From a virus: a DNA stretch of 64,000 nucleotides. Shown piece by piece: positions 10,573 to 54,821 of this stretch. Under the pieces are notes generated by a model. The model was given only the letters and a program-made list of their open reading frames with translations, did not search any database and was not told the DNA's origin. The DNA is taken from IMG/VR virus record IMGVR_UViG_3300028364_001588; one strand, given 5' to 3'. Made by a program: the position numbers and the translations under genes. Every line of letters starts with the position of its first letter. Positions within the stretch are counted from its first letter, which is position 1.

Positions 10573-11442
10573 ATGAAAACAAATAAGTTTATAGAAGAGT
10601 CGATTAAAATTCATGGAAATCGCTATAATTATAAAAACACAAAATACACAAACGCAAGAACTAAAATTAAAATAATTTGCCCAGAACACAATGAGTTTGA
10701 ACAGTTGCCTGGAAATCACAAAAGAGGTAATGGATGTCCTAAGTGTATTTATAACAAATTAACTAAAAAAGAAGTTTTAAAGCAATTTAAAAAAATACAT
10801 GGAGATAAATATGATTATTCTTTAATTGATTACAATGGAGATAATGTTAAAGTAAAAATAATTTGTTCAGAACATGGAGTATTTAAACAAGTTCCAGGAA
10901 TACACAAATTAGGTAGTGGTTGCAAAAAATGCGCTGGACTTGAGAAATTAGATAATGAAAAAGTGGTGGAGCAATTTAAAGAAACACATGGAGATAAATA
11001 TAATTATTCTTTAATTAACTATATTAATGCTCATACAAAAGTTAATATTATATGTCCAGAGCATGGAAGGTGGAGACAAACTCCAAATAATCATAAAAAC
11101 GGAAATGGGTGTCCTATATGTAAAGAATCTAAAGGAGAAAGAAAAATCAGAAATTTATTAAATGAAAATAAAGTCAATTTCATCTCGCAATATAAATTTA
11201 AAGATTGCAAAAATATATTGCAATTACCTTTCGATTTTTATTTACCAGAATATAATATATGCATTGAATACAATGGAATGCAACATTATAAACCAATTGA
11301 ACACTTTGGGGGTAGACTTGGTTTCAAAAAAAGAATTATTAATGATAATATAAAAAAAGGATATTGTGAAAAAAACAATATCCTTTTAATAACTATTAAC
11401 TACAACGAAGATGTAGAGAAAAAACTTAATCTAAAGTGGTAA
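10573..11442 (+). CDS. Free-standing homing-endonuclease-like protein (3 zinc-finger repeats plus Vsr/PD-(D/E)xK domain)
   Basis: Three IICxEHxxxxQxPxxHKxGxGCxxC repeats; FDFYLP..ICIEYNG.QHY nuclease motif; opposite strand to neighbours; own TATTTAT at 10561. Confidence 0.8.
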   Translation: MKTNKFIEESIKIHGNRYNYKNTKYTNARTKIKIICPEHNEFEQLPGNHKRGNGCPKCIYNKLTKKEVLKQFKKIHGDKYDYSLIDYNGDNVKVKIICSEHGVFKQVPGIHKLGSGCKKCAGLEKLDNEKVVEQFKETHGDKYNYSLINYINAHTKVNIICPEHGRWRQTPNNHKNGNGCPICKESKGERKIRNLLNENKVNFISQYKFKDCKNILQLPFDFYLPEYNICIEYNGMQHYKPIEHFGGRLGFKKRIINDNIKKGYCEKNNILLITINYNEDVEKKLNLKW

Positions 11443-24632: not shown

Positions 24633-25385
24633 TTATTTATCTACAAATAATTCATCAAATTCTACGTATTCTAAAAACTCATTTATTGGAGAATCTGGTG
24701 AACTTGATATAATTTCAAAATCAGGTATACTTTTTTGTTGCTCTGAGAAAAGCTTCCAGTAGTGCGTGCCTGCGTGATAAGTGTCTTTTCCTTGGTTTAC
24801 TCCCTCTTTGAACGTTTTAATATCAAAGTAGTCTGGTCGAAAATGACTTAAATCCTCGTTTGAAGCAACGCTTGCGCTTCTACTAACATATTTAGCATCC
24901 ACACCCAAAAGAACTACTCTTTTATATCCAAGAGAACGAGCGACATCCACAGCGCATGCTCCAGCGTTTCCACAGAAGCTAACCCTCTTTCCATCAAGTT
25001 CATGACTCGTATCTTTGGTGGTTTTTAAAAGACTCCCACTTCCGCAGTCAGATATTCTGACTATTTTTTCTCCATTTTCTGACCTCATTTTATCAACCCA
25101 TCCCGACATTTTGTAAGGATTGCCAAGGTGTTTCATTATGAAAAGCTTTTTAATATCTCTTTCTTTTATTATGCTTTCTATATCTTTGTGAATTGTTTTT
25201 ATCAACTTAGAGTCTATAATAAGATAATAAGTTGGAGTGAACCCCCAGTCATCATAAGCAATATACTGTCTATTCATACTAATCGTATTTTGACCAGCCA
25301 GTTTAGACATATCTATTTTGTTTAAGCTTTTTCCACTGCCTATGATAAAAACAGTATCCTTATTTGCTATCTTATCGTTTTTCAT
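24633..25385 (-). CDS. DUF115/Maf-like (CMP-sugar transferase-like) protein, paralog 1
   Basis: FIIGSGKSL, MNR, GYKRVVLLGVD, HF.PDYF. Confidence 0.7.
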   Translation of the reverse strand: MKNDKIANKDTVFIIGSGKSLNKIDMSKLAGQNTISMNRQYIAYDDWGFTPTYYLIIDSKLIKTIHKDIESIIKERDIKKLFIMKHLGNPYKMSGWVDKMRSENGEKIVRISDCGSGSLLKTTKDTSHELDGKRVSFCGNAGACAVDVARSLGYKRVVLLGVDAKYVSRSASVASNEDLSHFRPDYFDIKTFKEGVNQGKDTYHAGTHYWKLFSEQQKSIPDFEIISSSPDSPINEFLEYVEFDELFVDK

Positions 25386-25390
25386 AATAT

Positions 25391-26119
25391 TTAAAATAAT
25401 TCATCAAACTCTATATATTCTAAGAACTCATTTATTGGAGAACCTGGAGAGCTTGATATAATTTCAAAATCAGGCATGCTTTTTTGTTGCTCTGAGAAAA
25501 GCTTCCAATACTTTGTGCCTGAATTAACTCCATCTGGACCCTGATGTACTCCTTGCTTAAAAGTGTTAACATCAAAATAGTCAGAACGAAAGTGACTCAA
25601 ATCCTTATTGGCCTTAACACTTTCTTTTCTGTCAGTGTATTTAGCGTCTATTCCTAATAGTACAACTTTTTTGTATCCAAGAGAACGAGCGACCTCTACA
25701 GAACAAGCGCCAGCATTGCCATCAAATCCCATTCTTTTATTGTCTAAGTCAGGTCCTGATGTTACAAATCTTTCGCTTCCACCTGTGTGTATTTTCACTA
25801 TCTTATCGCCTTTTTCTTTTTTCATTATATCAATCCATGCTGCCATTTGATTCTGTGGATGATGCATGATGAAAAATTTTTTAATATCTGACTCTTCTTT
25901 TATTAATTTCTCCACGTCTTTGTGAATCGTATTTATTAGTTGAGCATCTATAATAAGGTAGTAAGTTGGAATAAATCCCCAGTCATCATAAGCAATGTAC
26001 TGTCTATTCATACTAATCGTGTTGTGATTAGCCAATTTAGACATATCCACTTTATTTAGACTATTGCCACTGCCAATAATAAAAACAGTGTCTTTGTCTG
26101 CTATTTTTTTATTCTCCAT
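25391..26119 (-). CDS. DUF115/Maf-like protein, paralog 2
   Basis: Same motifs; tandem duplicate of 24633-25385. Confidence 0.7.
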   Translation of the reverse strand: MENKKIADKDTVFIIGSGNSLNKVDMSKLANHNTISMNRQYIAYDDWGFIPTYYLIIDAQLINTIHKDVEKLIKEESDIKKFFIMHHPQNQMAAWIDIMKKEKGDKIVKIHTGGSERFVTSGPDLDNKRMGFDGNAGACSVEVARSLGYKKVVLLGIDAKYTDRKESVKANKDLSHFRSDYFDVNTFKQGVHQGPDGVNSGTKYWKLFSEQQKSMPDFEIISSSPGSPINEFLEYIEFDELF

Positions 26120-26130
26120 CTCTTTTTAAT

Positions 26131-26868
26131 TTATAAACTTGTGATTTGTTTAAAAATATCACTTTTTACTTTGTTATTTATTTTACGCATTTCTTCAATA
26201 TCACTTTCTGTTATCTTCCTGTTCTTATATTGTTCATAGTTAAACGTTTCAATTCCATTTTGACATTCCACTTGTAATCCACAAAAAAGCATTTCCAAAT
26301 ATTTTGCTTTGTTTTGATATGCTACCTCTCCAGCCTCTCCCTTCCCCTCGCTTGTCACGTAACCTTTTGAGTGCATAGATGCCATGTAATAAACATCTTT
26401 AATAGTGTTTCCTCTAATGTGCTTGCACTTATCTGGAAATGTCCTTCCAAATAACTTGTGACCAAAATAACACTGTTTCCCATTACGTTCGTTGTTAAAA
26501 ACTGGAAAAGGTGTTTCTGACAAGTAGAAATCGGATATGTATGTATGAACTGAGAATCTATCTTTATATTTTTTATCAAACAATATAAACATATCAACCA
26601 GTTCTTCAGCAACAAGTGTATCGACAAATGGAAACCTTGACTCATCATAAAATAAGGAAATAATTTTAATACCCTGCTCTTTAGCTGATTTCACTTCTTC
26701 TTTTCTTCTGCCTATTAATTCTGGCATGTCTATGAAAAGCCAATATTTAGTTCCATCAAGAGTTTGTCCCTTATCTTCATAAAAGTCAGAAGGATACATT
26801 GAGCTAAGTCCATGAAAACCATGAACTTTATTAAACTCGAAACCTCCATCAAATGTGCATTTAATCAT
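26131..26868 (-). CDS. Hypothetical protein, possibly a degenerate GT-B glycosyltransferase
   Basis: NKAKYLEMLFCG resembles the GT-B K..E...CG motif; located in the glycan island. Confidence 0.4.
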   Translation of the reverse strand: MIKCTFDGGFEFNKVHGFHGLSSMYPSDFYEDKGQTLDGTKYWLFIDMPELIGRRKEEVKSAKEQGIKIISLFYDESRFPFVDTLVAEELVDMFILFDKKYKDRFSVHTYISDFYLSETPFPVFNNERNGKQCYFGHKLFGRTFPDKCKHIRGNTIKDVYYMASMHSKGYVTSEGKGEAGEVAYQNKAKYLEMLFCGLQVECQNGIETFNYEQYKNRKITESDIEEMRKINNKVKSDIFKQITSL

Positions 26869-32808: not shown

Positions 32809-32858
32809 CTTTGTTGTTTTCTATAAATAGAAAAAAATAATAAAATTTACCCCTAAAA

Positions 32859-50067: not shown

Positions 50068-50640
50068 ATGGCTGATTTAAACGAAATAGGAAAATTCCCA
50101 GACGGGATGAAGGATGATGAAACTCAACCAGATGGTATTGGGTTATTCTTTGGAGATAAAGAGCGTGCTTTCTTTAGTTCTGCTGGTAGAGAGATGACTG
50201 AACAGATTCTTCAAGAGTCTATGATGCTTTTTAGAATTGACCTTAAGAGAACCCAAGGTCATAGTCTTTATGGTGAAGCAAAAGCTTTTCAAAAAGTTTG
50301 GAAACCAGAAGTTAAGATTCTTGGTAGAATAAATGTAGAGGCTATAGCTCCAGAATACACTGCAGATGGTGGTATTGTAAAGAAAGGGTTTGGACAATTG
50401 ACTGCGCATGTTTATATGGAACACTTAGAAGAGTTGGGTCTTGTTTTTGCCAAAGAAAATCAAACTACTGTGTTTGACCTTAATGATGGTGATTTTATAG
50501 GATTTAAAGACCAGTTTTATAAAATCATAAACAATGGTCACTCTCAAATCTCAAATGAGCACTCTTGGGGTGGTGATAGAAGGTTTTTTATTACAATCAC
50601 TGCTATCGAAGTTGACGAAGACGTTTTTAAGGCAAGGTAA
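50068..50640 (+). CDS. Neck protein (T4 gp14-like)
   Basis: LYGEA..., GDFI; follows the gp13-like gene. Confidence 0.65.
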   Translation: MADLNEIGKFPDGMKDDETQPDGIGLFFGDKERAFFSSAGREMTEQILQESMMLFRIDLKRTQGHSLYGEAKAFQKVWKPEVKILGRINVEAIAPEYTADGGIVKKGFGQLTAHVYMEHLEELGLVFAKENQTTVFDLNDGDFIGFKDQFYKIINNGHSQISNEHSWGGDRRFFITITAIEVDEDVFKAR

Positions 50641-50791
50641 TTCAAGAATTTATTTTTCTCTTAAATTATACTATAATCTTAGATATATAAAAATTATTCT
50701 TACCAGATTTAGGGAAAAATCCAAAAAGATAACGCCCCCCCTATTATCCCCCCCTCTTAGAAAAAGTATTTCTACTTTAATCAAAAAGGCC

Positions 50792-50990
50792 TGTGTGAGA
50801 GGATGCTAAGTTAATTGTTATACTTAGTCTTAAACCTGCAGTGACAGGACACCAAATTGCTTTGGCGGGTAATAGAGAGTTTGTTTTCCAAAAGTATGAT
50901 AAGTCTACCATGCCCAGTGTAAAATCTTTGTGATAGAAAGCAACGCCCCCAAAAATAAAACTCATAGTCACAAAGCAAAAGCCTTACGCA
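50792..50990 (+). ncRNA. Candidate multi-stem ncRNA (~200 nt)
   Basis: Closing stem plus five internal hairpins; G-U pairs favour the plus strand; intergenic. Confidence 0.55.
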
Positions 50991-51054
50991 AAGATAAAGC
51001 ATAAAAAACTTCATTTCCAAATTTCTTCAAACTATTTATTAAAAACACCTACAG

Positions 51055-51768
51055 ATGAGTATTAGTGATAACATAGGAAGAGAGTTGGATAACAACTTTG
51101 AAAACTTTAACTACTTGCCCCAAAAGCTTGAACTTGAAGACCATGACCTTGGTATCAAAAATTTCATTGAAGACTTAGGAATAAGTATGACAAATGAAAA
51201 TAATATTCTTGCTAAAGTTCCATTAATTTGGTTGACTCAAGAGCTTTGGGCTGAGAGAAAATTAAATTGGAAAGAGATGAGGGGAGAATTGGGAGAAGAA
51301 ATTACAAGACCTTTCATGACGATATATAGGAATTCCGTTATTCAAGGAACTTCTCCACTAAAAAGAACAATTCCAAACAAAATGAAGTTCAGATTTGTAA
51401 AGATTCCAAAAATGGATGGAACTTTAAAGGGTTATGATATTTATAAAATTCCACAACCAACTTATGTGGACTGTTCTTATACATTAAGCTTATTTACTCA
51501 CTATATAGTTGACGTAAATACATTTTACGAATTTATATTAAGAGAAGGTTATTCTGGAGGTCAAGGTTATATGAAAATCAATGGTCACGACATTTCTTCT
51601 AAGATAGGCGACCCAAGTGAAAACAATAAAAATGACATCTCTCAAGAGAGGGTTTATAGGATAGACATACCAATAACAGTGCAGGGTAAATTAATTGACC
51701 CAACCAAATTTGAGAAAGTAAATACCATTACAAAGGTGTTGATTAAAATTCAAGAGAAAAGAAGATAA
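51055..51768 (+). CDS. Tail completion/terminator protein (gp15-like)
   Basis: Located between neck and sheath genes; VPLI..ERW-like and PQPTYVD.SY motifs. Confidence 0.6.
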   Translation: MSISDNIGRELDNNFENFNYLPQKLELEDHDLGIKNFIEDLGISMTNENNILAKVPLIWLTQELWAERKLNWKEMRGELGEEITRPFMTIYRNSVIQGTSPLKRTIPNKMKFRFVKIPKMDGTLKGYDIYKIPQPTYVDCSYTLSLFTHYIVDVNTFYEFILREGYSGGQGYMKINGHDISSKIGDPSENNKNDISQERVYRIDIPITVQGKLIDPTKFEKVNTITKVLIKIQEKRR

Positions 51769-52139: not shown

Positions 52140-54821
52140 ATGGCAACAATATTTGTATCACCAGGTGTCTTCACAAGAGAACAAGATTTCACAATCTTTG
52201 CATCAAGAATAGGTATTACAAGATTGGGAGTTGTTGGTAAAACCTTAAAGGGACCAGCATTCGAACCAATTAAAATAAGAACTACTGATGACTATCTACT
52301 TAGATTTGGGTCAACTGACCCAGACTTCCCGCTACCATACGTGGCGAATTCATTCTTGGCACAATCAAATGAATTAACTGTAACCAGAGTACTTGGTAGT
52401 GATGGGTTTACTAACTCACCAGCATGGTTAATCATGGCTAACATTTCTGATTTTTATTCAGGAGAGACAGTTTATAGTGGACTTACATTTTCACAAAGCG
52501 GACAAGCTGCACCAGTAACTTATAACTTCTCAGGTATCACAGACCCTGTTATGGCGAACGGAACTGTTTCAGCAAACACTGTTGGAAATGATGTTGTAAT
52601 TAACTATAGTGGTTCTGTAACTTCAGATTTTGTAAACAACGCACTTTTAGCTGATGCAGGATTTGTAGCCTTAAATATTTCTGTTGATGATGATAATGTT
52701 TCTCTTTTTGGAGATGGAACATGGTCACTTGCTGTAGCTACTGCAGAGCCTAAAGGTTCTAAATCAGGTTCTACACTTGCAGTTCTTAGAAGTAAGAGAA
52801 ATCAAATTGATGATTCATGGTACTTCAACGAAGAAAGTGATGTTACAATTGGAGCAATTACTTCTACATTAGGAAGTTTTGCACTTAGCGCAACAACTGG
52901 ACCTCTTACTGCTCAAACAAATAGTGGATTTACAGTTTCTCTTGATGAAACGAGAGAAGATTATATTACTAAGATTCTTGGTAGAAACCCAAAAATTATT
53001 GATGGGGCACCAAATCTTTATGTAGAAAGAATCTACCCTCACTTTGTGAGAGAGGCGAGTTCTCTTAATGATATTGCAAATATTAACTCAACTCTTGCTT
53101 ATACAGAAGAAGCGGCTTATACTGACTTCGCAAATGGATATACAAATGCTATTACTCCATGGATTGTATCGAGAGTAATCGGGGGAGACGTTAGAAACCT
53201 TTTCAAAATCCAAACTATTTCTGATGGTAACTCATCAAATATTGAGATTAAGATTTCTATCGCAAATATTGATATTTTAAACTATACTTTCGATATAATT
53301 GTAAGAAGATATGAAGACACAGATGCTTCAGCTTCTTCTACAGCGCTTGAAAGATGGTCAAACCTTTCTCTTAGAGAAGAAGATGCTAACTTTATTGCTA
53401 AGGTAATCGGAACAGCCGATGAGACTTACCCAAGAAAGTCAAGATTCATTACAATTGACCTTGCTGCTTCATTCCCAACTAATACTGTACCTGCAGGATT
53501 TAGAGGTTATGATTTAAGAGAGACTGGGATTTCAGGTTCTACTGCACCAAATGTTTATTACAAGACTGATTATCTTTCAGGTGATTCAGTGTTCAAAACA
53601 TACCTTGGTATTTCTGAGCTTGGATACACTAATTTTACAACTGACCAAGTTTCTACAAGAACTGCGATTAAGACTATCGAGTCTGATTTATTTTCATACG
53701 AAGGAGGAACTACTACAGATAAAACAGAGATTAAAGGTTTCCACCTTGAGAACACAGCAGATGCTACTAAATTTATTAGTGGTAACGAAAATTCTCTTAC
53801 AGGATATACAAATGCAGCTGGAACACTTGTTGATAGAAACAAGTTGAAATTTACACTTGTACCTGCTGGTGGATTTGATGGATGGGATAAGTATAGAACT
53901 TACCAAAATCTTTACGAAGAGTTTACTGATGCATTCCCTAATAATGTTAACGCATTTAAAGATGGTCTTGACGAAATGGCAAACCCAGAAGTTGTGGACA
54001 TCAATGTAATGGTTACGCCAGGTGTTGATTATAGCAATAATACAAACATTGTTAAGTATGCACTTGATATTGTAGAAGATAGAACGGATGCAATCTATGT
54101 AATGGATGCGCCAAGGCTTACAAGCGGCTCAATCAAAGGGACTCCAGAAGAAGTTGTTTCAAGACTTGAAGCAACTGGTATTGACAGCAACTATGCTGCT
54201 ACATACTGGCCATGGATTCAAATTGAAGACCCTAATTCAGGTAGATTCACTTACCAAGCGCCTACTATGATGGCTGTTCAAACATATGCGCTTACAGATA
54301 ATATTTCTGCGCCATGGTTTGCTCCTGCTGGACTTAACAGAGGACTTGCTGGACCACAAGTAATTAGAGCTGACGTTAGATTAAACAACAACGATAGAGA
54401 CACACTTTACCAAGGTAGAGTTAATCCAATCGCAACGTTTGTACAACAAGGTGTTGTTATTTGGGGACAAAAAACTCTTCAACAAAGACAATCTGCTCTT
54501 GATAGAATTAACATCAGAAGATTGTTACTTCAAGTTAGAAGATTAGTTGCAGCAGCGTCTCTTACATTATTGTTCGAACAAAACGACCAAACTCTTAGAG
54601 ACCAATTCTTAGCTAAGGTTGAGCCAATTCTTCTTCAGATTCAAAATCAAAGAGGGCTTACAGCTTTCAAAGTAGTTATGGATGACTCTAATAACACAGC
54701 AGATACAATCGACAGAAATACGTTGGTTGGTAAGATTCAACTTCAACCTACAAGAACGGCTGAATTCATTGACCTTACGTTTCAAGTCCTTCCCACGGGG
54801 GCGAGATTTGAAGATTTTTAA
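52140..54821 (+). CDS. Tail sheath protein (T4 gp18-like)
   Basis: SPGVFTREQD, KGPAFEP, PWFAPAGLNRG, VNPI, WGQKTL, LDRINIRRL, FEQND, PTRTAEFI. Confidence 0.96.
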   Translation: MATIFVSPGVFTREQDFTIFASRIGITRLGVVGKTLKGPAFEPIKIRTTDDYLLRFGSTDPDFPLPYVANSFLAQSNELTVTRVLGSDGFTNSPAWLIMANISDFYSGETVYSGLTFSQSGQAAPVTYNFSGITDPVMANGTVSANTVGNDVVINYSGSVTSDFVNNALLADAGFVALNISVDDDNVSLFGDGTWSLAVATAEPKGSKSGSTLAVLRSKRNQIDDSWYFNEESDVTIGAITSTLGSFALSATTGPLTAQTNSGFTVSLDETREDYITKILGRNPKIIDGAPNLYVERIYPHFVREASSLNDIANINSTLAYTEEAAYTDFANGYTNAITPWIVSRVIGGDVRNLFKIQTISDGNSSNIEIKISIANIDILNYTFDIIVRRYEDTDASASSTALERWSNLSLREEDANFIAKVIGTADETYPRKSRFITIDLAASFPTNTVPAGFRGYDLRETGISGSTAPNVYYKTDYLSGDSVFKTYLGISELGYTNFTTDQVSTRTAIKTIESDLFSYEGGTTTDKTEIKGFHLENTADATKFISGNENSLTGYTNAAGTLVDRNKLKFTLVPAGGFDGWDKYRTYQNLYEEFTDAFPNNVNAFKDGLDEMANPEVVDINVMVTPGVDYSNNTNIVKYALDIVEDRTDAIYVMDAPRLTSGSIKGTPEEVVSRLEATGIDSNYAATYWPWIQIEDPNSGRFTYQAPTMMAVQTYALTDNISAPWFAPAGLNRGLAGPQVIRADVRLNNNDRDTLYQGRVNPIATFVQQGVVIWGQKTLQQRQSALDRINIRRLLLQVRRLVAAASLTLLFEQNDQTLRDQFLAKVEPILLQIQNQRGLTAFKVVMDDSNNTADTIDRNTLVGKIQLQPTRTAEFIDLTFQVLPTGARFEDF

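Follow-up and report, generated by a model that had tools for sequence, protein, structure and literature searches.

A conserved structured RNA gene, probably read from the minus strand, between neck-side and tail-side genes of uncultured jumbo phages

Comparison of one intergenic gap with its relatives indicates that it very probably holds a minus-strand non-coding RNA gene, belonging to a family that has not been described. The gap lies in the window, by which we mean the whole 64,000-nt stretch of phage DNA analysed here. The best explanation overall, to which we give a probability of roughly 0.55, is a stand-alone gene for a structured RNA that would be transcribed from a sigma-A-type promoter and would act as a folded RNA. 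The gene is about 285 nt long (50700-50985, minus strand), as delimited by a covariance-model match and by the full-length consensus fold of 15 sequences. We infer the strand, the ends and the timing of this RNA from sequence comparison.

The gap measures 414 nt, from a 190-aa neck-side ORF (50068-50640, plus) to a 237-aa ORF (51055-51768, plus), which is followed by the gene for an 893-aa tail sheath protein starting at 52140. Neither of the two flanking genes has a family match, and the predicted RNA gene is antisense to both of them, on the neck side and on the tail-terminator side. The virus record containing the window is 101.5 kb long and is estimated to be only 31% complete, and the phage is therefore a jumbo phage. 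The RNA is present as a single copy in this record, with no repeats of it elsewhere in the window. The window does contain repeats unrelated to the RNA, namely diverged tandem duplications at 24645-26134 (units of ~735-750 nt, 72-90% identity) and three diverged tandem units of ~186 nt found by a repeat scan at 10662-11111.

Relatives were collected by protein-anchored scans of IMG/VR and metagenomes, using the 237-aa protein as synteny anchor. This gave about 45 distinct syntenic loci from uncultured jumbo-myophage contigs, with the RNA at the same position. At 50% identity or more in the 237-aa protein, the gap is 300-440 nt long, or longer if an extra ORF has been inserted; at 38% or less, it is 47-82 nt and the RNA is absent. 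A covariance model (R1) built on the first 105 nt of the RNA matched 42 loci with E values from 1e-20 to 4e-5, all on the same, minus-equivalent strand and none in the short-gap clade. The R1 match in the window covers 50881-50987 on the minus strand (92.3 bits, E 1.7e-19). Searching 50,697 phage records with the gap and its flanks by blastn returned no match, and tblastn with the 237-aa protein returned a sole match of 26% identity, in Microcystis phage Mel-JY01; on these two results, there is therefore no cultured relative. When 185,579 species of bacteria and archaea, each represented by one genome, were scanned by pattern, a single match was obtained; it lies inside a 415-aa ORF, scores 12.9 bits with the covariance model and was rejected as chance.

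Known RNA families do not account for the element. Rfam 15 at gathering thresholds gave 0 matches in the 64-kb window, and ARAGORN found 0 tRNA or tmRNA genes there, in agreement with an earlier note on this DNA, which had judged the stretch to be unlike tRNA, tmRNA or RNase P. When Rfam was searched over 50500-51200 with E up to 10, only chance matches of 18.9 bits or less were obtained, against thresholds of 38-100, and there was no covariance-model match to phi29 pRNA (RF00044), GOLLD (RF01998) or ROOL (RF03087). No description of such an RNA was found in the literature searched. A gene for a small protein was considered and rejected, given that among 15 close relatives the longest ATG-initiated ORF may be as short as 9 aa or as long as 69 aa on the RNA strand, with a range of 7-39 aa on the opposite strand. 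Neither strand has a conserved ORF; the earlier note, for its part, had seen no credible ORF in its stretch. A riboswitch or other cis-acting leader was rejected too, with no co-oriented ORF downstream and the minus-strand RNA running into the antisense of the 190-aa gene. The same holds for a plus-strand leader of the 237-aa gene, since a separate promoter box stands between the structure and that gene.

The earlier note had drawn a plus-strand RNA as a six-way junction at 50792-50990. Its closing stem (UGUGUGAG from 50792 with CUUACGCA ending at 50990) enclosed CUAAGU (50806) with ACUUAG (to 50827), CCUG (50835) with CAGG (to 50848), CCAAA (50852) with UUUGG (to 50865), GGGUA (50867) and UAGA (50873) with UCUA (50904) and UGCCC (to 50915), and CUUUGUGA (50926) with UCACAAAG (to 50975). 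All twelve strings sit exactly at those positions, the RNAfold minimum free energy structure of 50792-50990 on the plus strand is exactly the one drawn, and the stretch is indeed richer in GC (0.387 versus 0.136 and 0.234 in the flanking spacers). The note had itself said that a folding energy no better than that of shuffled controls would refute its proposal, and this is what was obtained: -40.0 kcal/mol compared with -37.9 +/- 3.9 for dinucleotide shuffles (z -0.55; 52 of 200 shuffles as good), so that the fold alone is no evidence. What did bear out the idea of a conserved structured non-coding RNA was the finding of covarying homologues. Among seven close homologues, three of the six stems covary, those numbered 2, 4 and 7, with double changes at 4 pairs of CUAAGU/ACUUAG, 5 of CCAAA/UUUGG and 4 of CUUUGUGA/UCACAAAG. 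The other three do not hold in the same homologues: pairing in the closing stem reaches 77.6%, with a single double change; in CCUG/CAGG there are no double changes and the outer pair is broken in four of the seven; and GGGUA..UAGA/UCUA..UGCCC, paired at 69-86%, hardly covaries. These last two compete with long-range helices that covary. The plus-strand alignments contained invariant blocks and compensatory changes, and in them RNAalifold put a helix between 50737-50749 and 50867-50879 in place of the closing stem. The junction closed by 50792/50990 is thus not conserved, the actual closing helix being 50879-50867 with 50749-50737, followed by a second long helix. The element extends from about 50985 to 50700, some 90 nt past the left boundary first proposed.

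The comparative data also moved the RNA from the plus to the minus strand, on the combined evidence of the promoter, the consensus-fold z-scores and an asymmetry in the mismatches. Helices read on the plus strand have recurrent A·C or C·A mismatches that become G·U pairs on the minus strand. When the pairs predicted on one strand or the other are taken together, G·U cells of the minus strand exceed A·C cells by 138 to 10 in group A and by 98 to 36 in group B. Whole helices need these minus-strand G·U pairs, as in the helix P3 of the lineages L046, L049 and L067 and in the arm M3c. The consensus fold scored -50.1 on the minus strand versus -24.3 on the plus strand for 15 group A sequences, and -39.5 versus -17.1 for 8 group B sequences, with column-shuffle z values for groups A and B of -11.6 and -8.3 (minus) and -5.5 and -7.0 (plus). 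Plus-strand versions of several helices, including one with a G-rich 5' partner in the GC-rich group, were dropped on account of their A·C mismatches on the minus strand, which the other evidence supports. On neither strand did single sequences fold better than their shuffles (z -0.81 and -0.08), and the evidence is therefore comparative and not thermodynamic. In favour of a plus-strand RNA that would be part of the late neck transcript and form the six-way junction at 50792-50990, one can cite its identity with the minimum free energy structure, the late read-through that would transcribe that strand, and a plus-strand consensus fold that also beats column shuffles, the last because helices are complementary. 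Given that the closing stem and two others are without covariation, that many helices, if read on the plus strand, contain C·A mismatches, that there is no conserved plus-strand promoter or motif upstream, and that the conserved promoter faces the other way, we regard this reading as very improbable and the plus-strand junction as largely refuted.

The promoter appeared in the alignments as a conserved plus-strand block, CAAAnnTA, which on the minus strand reads TAnnTTTG. The pattern TTTG-N18-21-TAnnTTTG has a match on the minus strand at 50989-51021, where the window reads TTTG-N21-TATCTTTG (51021-50989). The -33 box, TTTG (51018-51021, minus), corresponds to a (T/C)TTG found 20-21 nt 5' of the -7 box in nearly all homologues. 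The -7 box itself, TATCTTTG (50989-50996, minus), is kept in all sequence groups and reads TATCTTTG or TATACTTG in the group with 49% GC. In nearly every homologue, the 49% GC lineage included, the pair of boxes stands at a fixed distance from the first hairpin, P1. TAnnTTTG at -12 to -5 is the -7 consensus for sigma-A of flavobacteria (PMC9723704). By its fit to the consensus in both sequence and spacing, the predicted promoter of the RNA gene is of the Bacteroidota sigma-A type (TTTG / TAnnTTTG) and is conserved; it differs from other promoters of this type in being carried by a phage, inside a late structural block, and in facing against the neighbouring genes. The 5' end of the RNA would then lie about 5-7 nt past the -7 box. 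A scan for sigma-70 promoters and terminators found nothing above shuffles, the spacer included, and no terminator or 3' end of the RNA was found. The motif ACTA..AGT, which precedes the element on the plus strand, shows no enrichment as a general promoter (7 found versus 6.8 expected).

A different box, CTATTTAT (51032-51039, plus), is invariant in homologues and is the putative late promoter of the 237-aa gene. It was found 12-30 nt 5' of many start codons on both strands, which suggests that it is probably the late promoter of the phage. In the form CTATTTAT(W)A it is present on the plus strand at 9647, 10560, 40951, 48535, 51032, 51794, 54895 and 56548 and on the minus strand at 32830, 18616, 15801, 10449 and 5044, often right after a hairpin plus T-run. 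With only 10 nt between the -33 box of the RNA and the copy at 51032-51039, which would serve the 237-aa gene, the two promoters would be divergent, back to back. No intrinsic terminator was found between the 190-aa gene and the gap, and late read-through would consequently yield the complement of the RNA. On its other side, the RNA is separated from the 190-aa stop codon by an AT-rich spacer (50641-50699, 13.6% GC). In relatives this spacer has lineage-specific direct or inverted repeats, at equivalent positions and read on the plus strand. L043 has three copies of ACTGTGTTTA, L059 two of a 16-nt unit and L032 two of ATCTTCTTATAT; L037 and L039 have a 16-bp palindrome, and L035 is also among the relatives concerned. 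These repeats could be binding sites or mere AT-rich slippage.

The full-length fold of 15 group A sequences has 64 pairs, with 96.8% of cells paired as compared with 46-54% in slid controls. Double changes were seen at 29 pairs (94 cells), a level reached by 0 of 500 shuffles. In the following description all features are on the minus strand. After a short leader comes the 5' hairpin P1 (50926-50975), formed by CUUUGUGA (50975-50968) and UCACAAAG (50933-50926) and complementary to the sixth stem of the earlier note. Over 42 sequences, 91.7% of the P1 cells are paired, with 116 double-change cells, 0 of 500 shuffles at that level and slid controls at 35-55%. The 34-nt loop of P1 displays a conserved GGGGCGUUG; the loop motif GGGGGCGUUG (50941-50950) is conserved in alignments A6 and A7. 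A second copy of the motif, GGGGGGGCGUU (50741-50731), is in the internal loop between the helices P3 and P2', and AACGCCCC is what the plus strand reads at both sites. No targets complementary to the GGGGCGUUG loop were found in the window. P1 is followed by a joining strand, AUUUUACACUGGGC (50912-50925), of which UUUURCACUG is conserved across groups in alignment A6, and then by the M2 hairpin, AUGGUA-GACU-UAUCAU (50896-50911), which carries a box that we call X1 and has a G·U pair that would be A·C on the plus strand. A hairpin is found at the M2 position in every lineage, its sequence changing (UGCAA/UUGCA, CGUGG/CCACG, GCAA/UUGC).

The A-rich 5' strand of P2', ACUUUUGGAAAAC (50883-50895), pairs with a U-rich tail at 50733-50712, and these pairs include AAC/GUU, formed by 50885-50883 with 50733-50731. 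A search for the P2' duplex in 25 lineages gave long covarying helices in eight of them (L046, L048, L044, L055, L058, L041, L140 and L132; z -2.7 to -5.3). P3 is formed by CUCUCUAUUACCC (50867-50879) and GGGAUAAUAGGGG (50737-50749), the latter with G-runs; this helix, helix 5 of the fold, has 13 pairs, 7 of them with double changes, and in group B it is complete only with G·U pairs and hence only on the minus strand. In lineage L034 the whole of P3 is replaced by an unrelated complementary pair, CUUAAAUGGUUCC/GGAACCAUUUAAG. Mononucleotide-shuffle tests of the P3 and P2' duplexes were weak (median z -1.7 and -0.9), since strands rich in G and in U go on pairing when shuffled, and the argument for both predicted helices is one of covariation and not of energy. 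Together, P2' and P3 make a long composite helix that closes a junction of three arms. M3a (50851-50866) is a hairpin, the complement of CCAAA/UUUGG, and as helix 6 has double changes at 5 of its 5 pairs. M3b (50790-50848) consists of helices 7-9, with 3, 2 and 6 pairs showing double changes: an outer helix (50848-50844 with 50794-50790), which replaces the CCUG/CAGG hairpin drawn previously, a middle helix (50839-50835 with 50802-50799), and a terminal hairpin (50829-50822 with 50811-50805), which is the complement of CUAAGU/ACUUAG. In M3c (50751-50788), CCUUUU (50788-50783) pairs with GAGGGG (50756-50751) as helix 10, mostly through U·G alternating with C-G (per pair, UG in 8-10 against CG in 6-7), which would be C·A on the plus strand. 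The arms vary between lineages, being three simple hairpins in group B, and the core is conserved. On the 3' side, conservation reaches a CUGGUAA box at 50707-50701.

This last box, X2 (50701-50707, minus), lies directly 3' of the P2' 3' strand and is a second copy of the box in M2, so that in the window the two copies read AUGGUAG (X1, in M2) and CUGGUAA (X2, after P2'). Each RNA is in fact built of two similar modules, GGGGCGUU ... U-run ... C-C-CU ... box, the second GGGGCGUU being in the internal loop of the P2'/P3 helix, and the R1 model, which represents the 5' module, finds weak second matches on the 3' module of the same RNAs. The boxes vary by lineage with both copies changing in parallel: CGCAAGUC occurs twice in L063, GCAA[G/A]UAUAUUG twice in L139, GCAAUAUAUC twice in L045 and UGGUAGUAUA twice in L043. 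In a local-score permutation test, the similarity of X1 to X2 was 120 within lineages versus 91.5 +/- 4.7 across lineages, and 0 of 5000 permutations reached that value; a test by 9-mer identity was discarded because its background was too high. Both boxes are complementary to the 3' strand of M2, which directly precedes the P2' strand. Pairing of this M2 strand with the second box would extend P2' (by 10 bp in L032) and release the first box, and since the two boxes complement the same strand, transcription of the 3' tail may remodel M2. Perhaps the twin boxes serve a co-transcriptional strand exchange of this kind, or they may be the sign of one lineage-specific partner.

Several relatives depart from this plan. 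Inserted ORFs have enlarged the gap to 588-1370 nt in L045/L070, L056, L060/L066, L061 and L148; by eye, the frame in L148 resembles an HNH endonuclease. Such gaps still contain the RNA gene, farther from the 237-aa gene (R1 matches at 441-545 in L148 and 443-545 in L045). In L033 (the same as L003; 1190-1500), about 110 nt have been deleted, and with them M3b, M3c and the greater part of the P3 5' strand. The promoter is retained, as are P1, M2 and the tail (R1, 91 bits), and this RNA is a minimal form or else a copy in decay. Group E (L042, L053, L054, L062 and L144) has a strongly divergent RNA with the same promoter and position, whose 3' end has a G-run, then a U-run and a box resembling CACUUAGG; the R1 search had no match to the RNAs of this group. 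The lineage of 49% GC (L063, L064, L149 and L151) has a compact version of the RNA, with an extra GC-rich hairpin and U-run within the P2' 3' strand. This hairpin resembles an intrinsic terminator, yet it is inside the conserved fold.

As to what the RNA does, we tentatively favour a trans-acting scaffold or decoy, ahead of a primer RNA and then of a locus-bound antisense element. The host RNA polymerase would make the RNA from the start of infection, and the RNA would act in trans, as a folded RNA particle or as the scaffold of an RNP. Its modules (GGGGCGUU ... U-run ... box), two in number and equivalent, would bind two copies of one partner, which might be a phage protein or a nucleic acid. 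The closest systems in kind are GOLLD (RF01998) and ROOL (RF03087), likewise large multi-helix RNAs, found in phages and in mobile DNA, that are stand-alone, promoter-driven and of no known function, with invariant loops or junctions and strong covariation. The resemblance is in kind only, and the RNA described here is no member of either family. GOLLD and ROOL RNAs are more than 500 nt long, as compared with about 285 nt and an internal two-module repeat in the present case; they often adjoin tRNA genes, of which there are none in the 64 kb, and they differ also from an RNA that is fixed in a structural gene block with always the same two neighbours. GOLLD, ROOL and OLE form RNA-only homo-oligomers (PMC12286853). 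The strict synteny with neck and tail genes speaks against a function in trans, since it could mean a role tied to the locus. An early transcript that pairs or collides with late neck read-through mRNA, and so sets the neck/tail boundary or its timing, would agree with this strictly conserved position, with the back-to-back arrangement of the RNA promoter and the late promoter, with the failure to find an intrinsic terminator between the 190-aa gene and the gap, and with the different RNA variant that group E has at the same spot. Simple antisense or roadblock action needs neither some 60 covarying intramolecular pairs nor invariant loops, however, and we consider this explanation unlikely.

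Slightly less unlikely, by analogy with ColE1 RNA II and T4 oriF/oriG, is a replication-origin primer, the G-rich 3' part of which would stay as an R-loop on the C-rich template and prime synthesis into the AT-rich spacer. Like those transcripts, the RNA has a host-type promoter (hence, in our reading, a host polymerase), a required fold, and G-rich segments (runs of G7, G7 and G5 in a 34% GC genome), with the 13.6% GC spacer and its lineage-specific repeats in relatives lying immediately downstream. However, the G-runs take part in covarying pairs within the RNA, and L034 does without them, having in their place a helix that is not made of G-runs; there is no homology to the known primers, no initiator gene or boxes were identified, and cumulative GC skew has no turn at 50.8 kb that would show an origin but turns near 30 kb, where gene orientation flips. 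Much less probable still is a virion or assembly cofactor comparable to the packaging RNA of phi29, which would contact co-evolving neck or tail proteins. The phi29 pRNA, with its early promoter, conserved fold and lineage-specific pairing boxes, is also a phage-encoded structured RNA, and a packaging role had been among the speculations of the earlier note; the constant location of the gene between neck-side and tail-side genes, and the twin boxes that change together in each lineage, would suit such a cofactor. There is no similarity to pRNA (RF00044), though, nor any link to the packaging motor in what is here a contractile-tail jumbo phage, the boxes vary in parallel and not as complements, and neither packaging nor neck assembly of the T4-like kind is known to require an RNA. 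We put at an equally low level the more specific proposal of an early-made assembly or identity cofactor, in which the two co-evolving boxes would be addresses that dock the RNA, as a monomer or an RNA-only multimer, on the co-evolving neck or tail-terminator proteins encoded by the flanking genes.

Large structured RNAs whose conserved core looks tertiary are few in number, and every one of them has in the past led to new biochemistry, in the form of ribozymes, riboswitches or RNA-only assemblies. With strand, boundaries, promoter and fold defined, the RNA is directly testable, and its case illustrates how a real gene can be hidden by a single-sequence fold that looks plausible but is on the wrong strand. 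Should the assembly-cofactor reading be true, this would be the first RNA to take part in head-tail joining in a phage with a contractile tail. The clade of uncultured jumbo phages that carries the RNA probably infects Bacteroidota. Its retention at one fixed spot throughout the clade, together with apparent transcription by the host polymerase, suggests that the RNA is likely to be a tool of the phage during infection.
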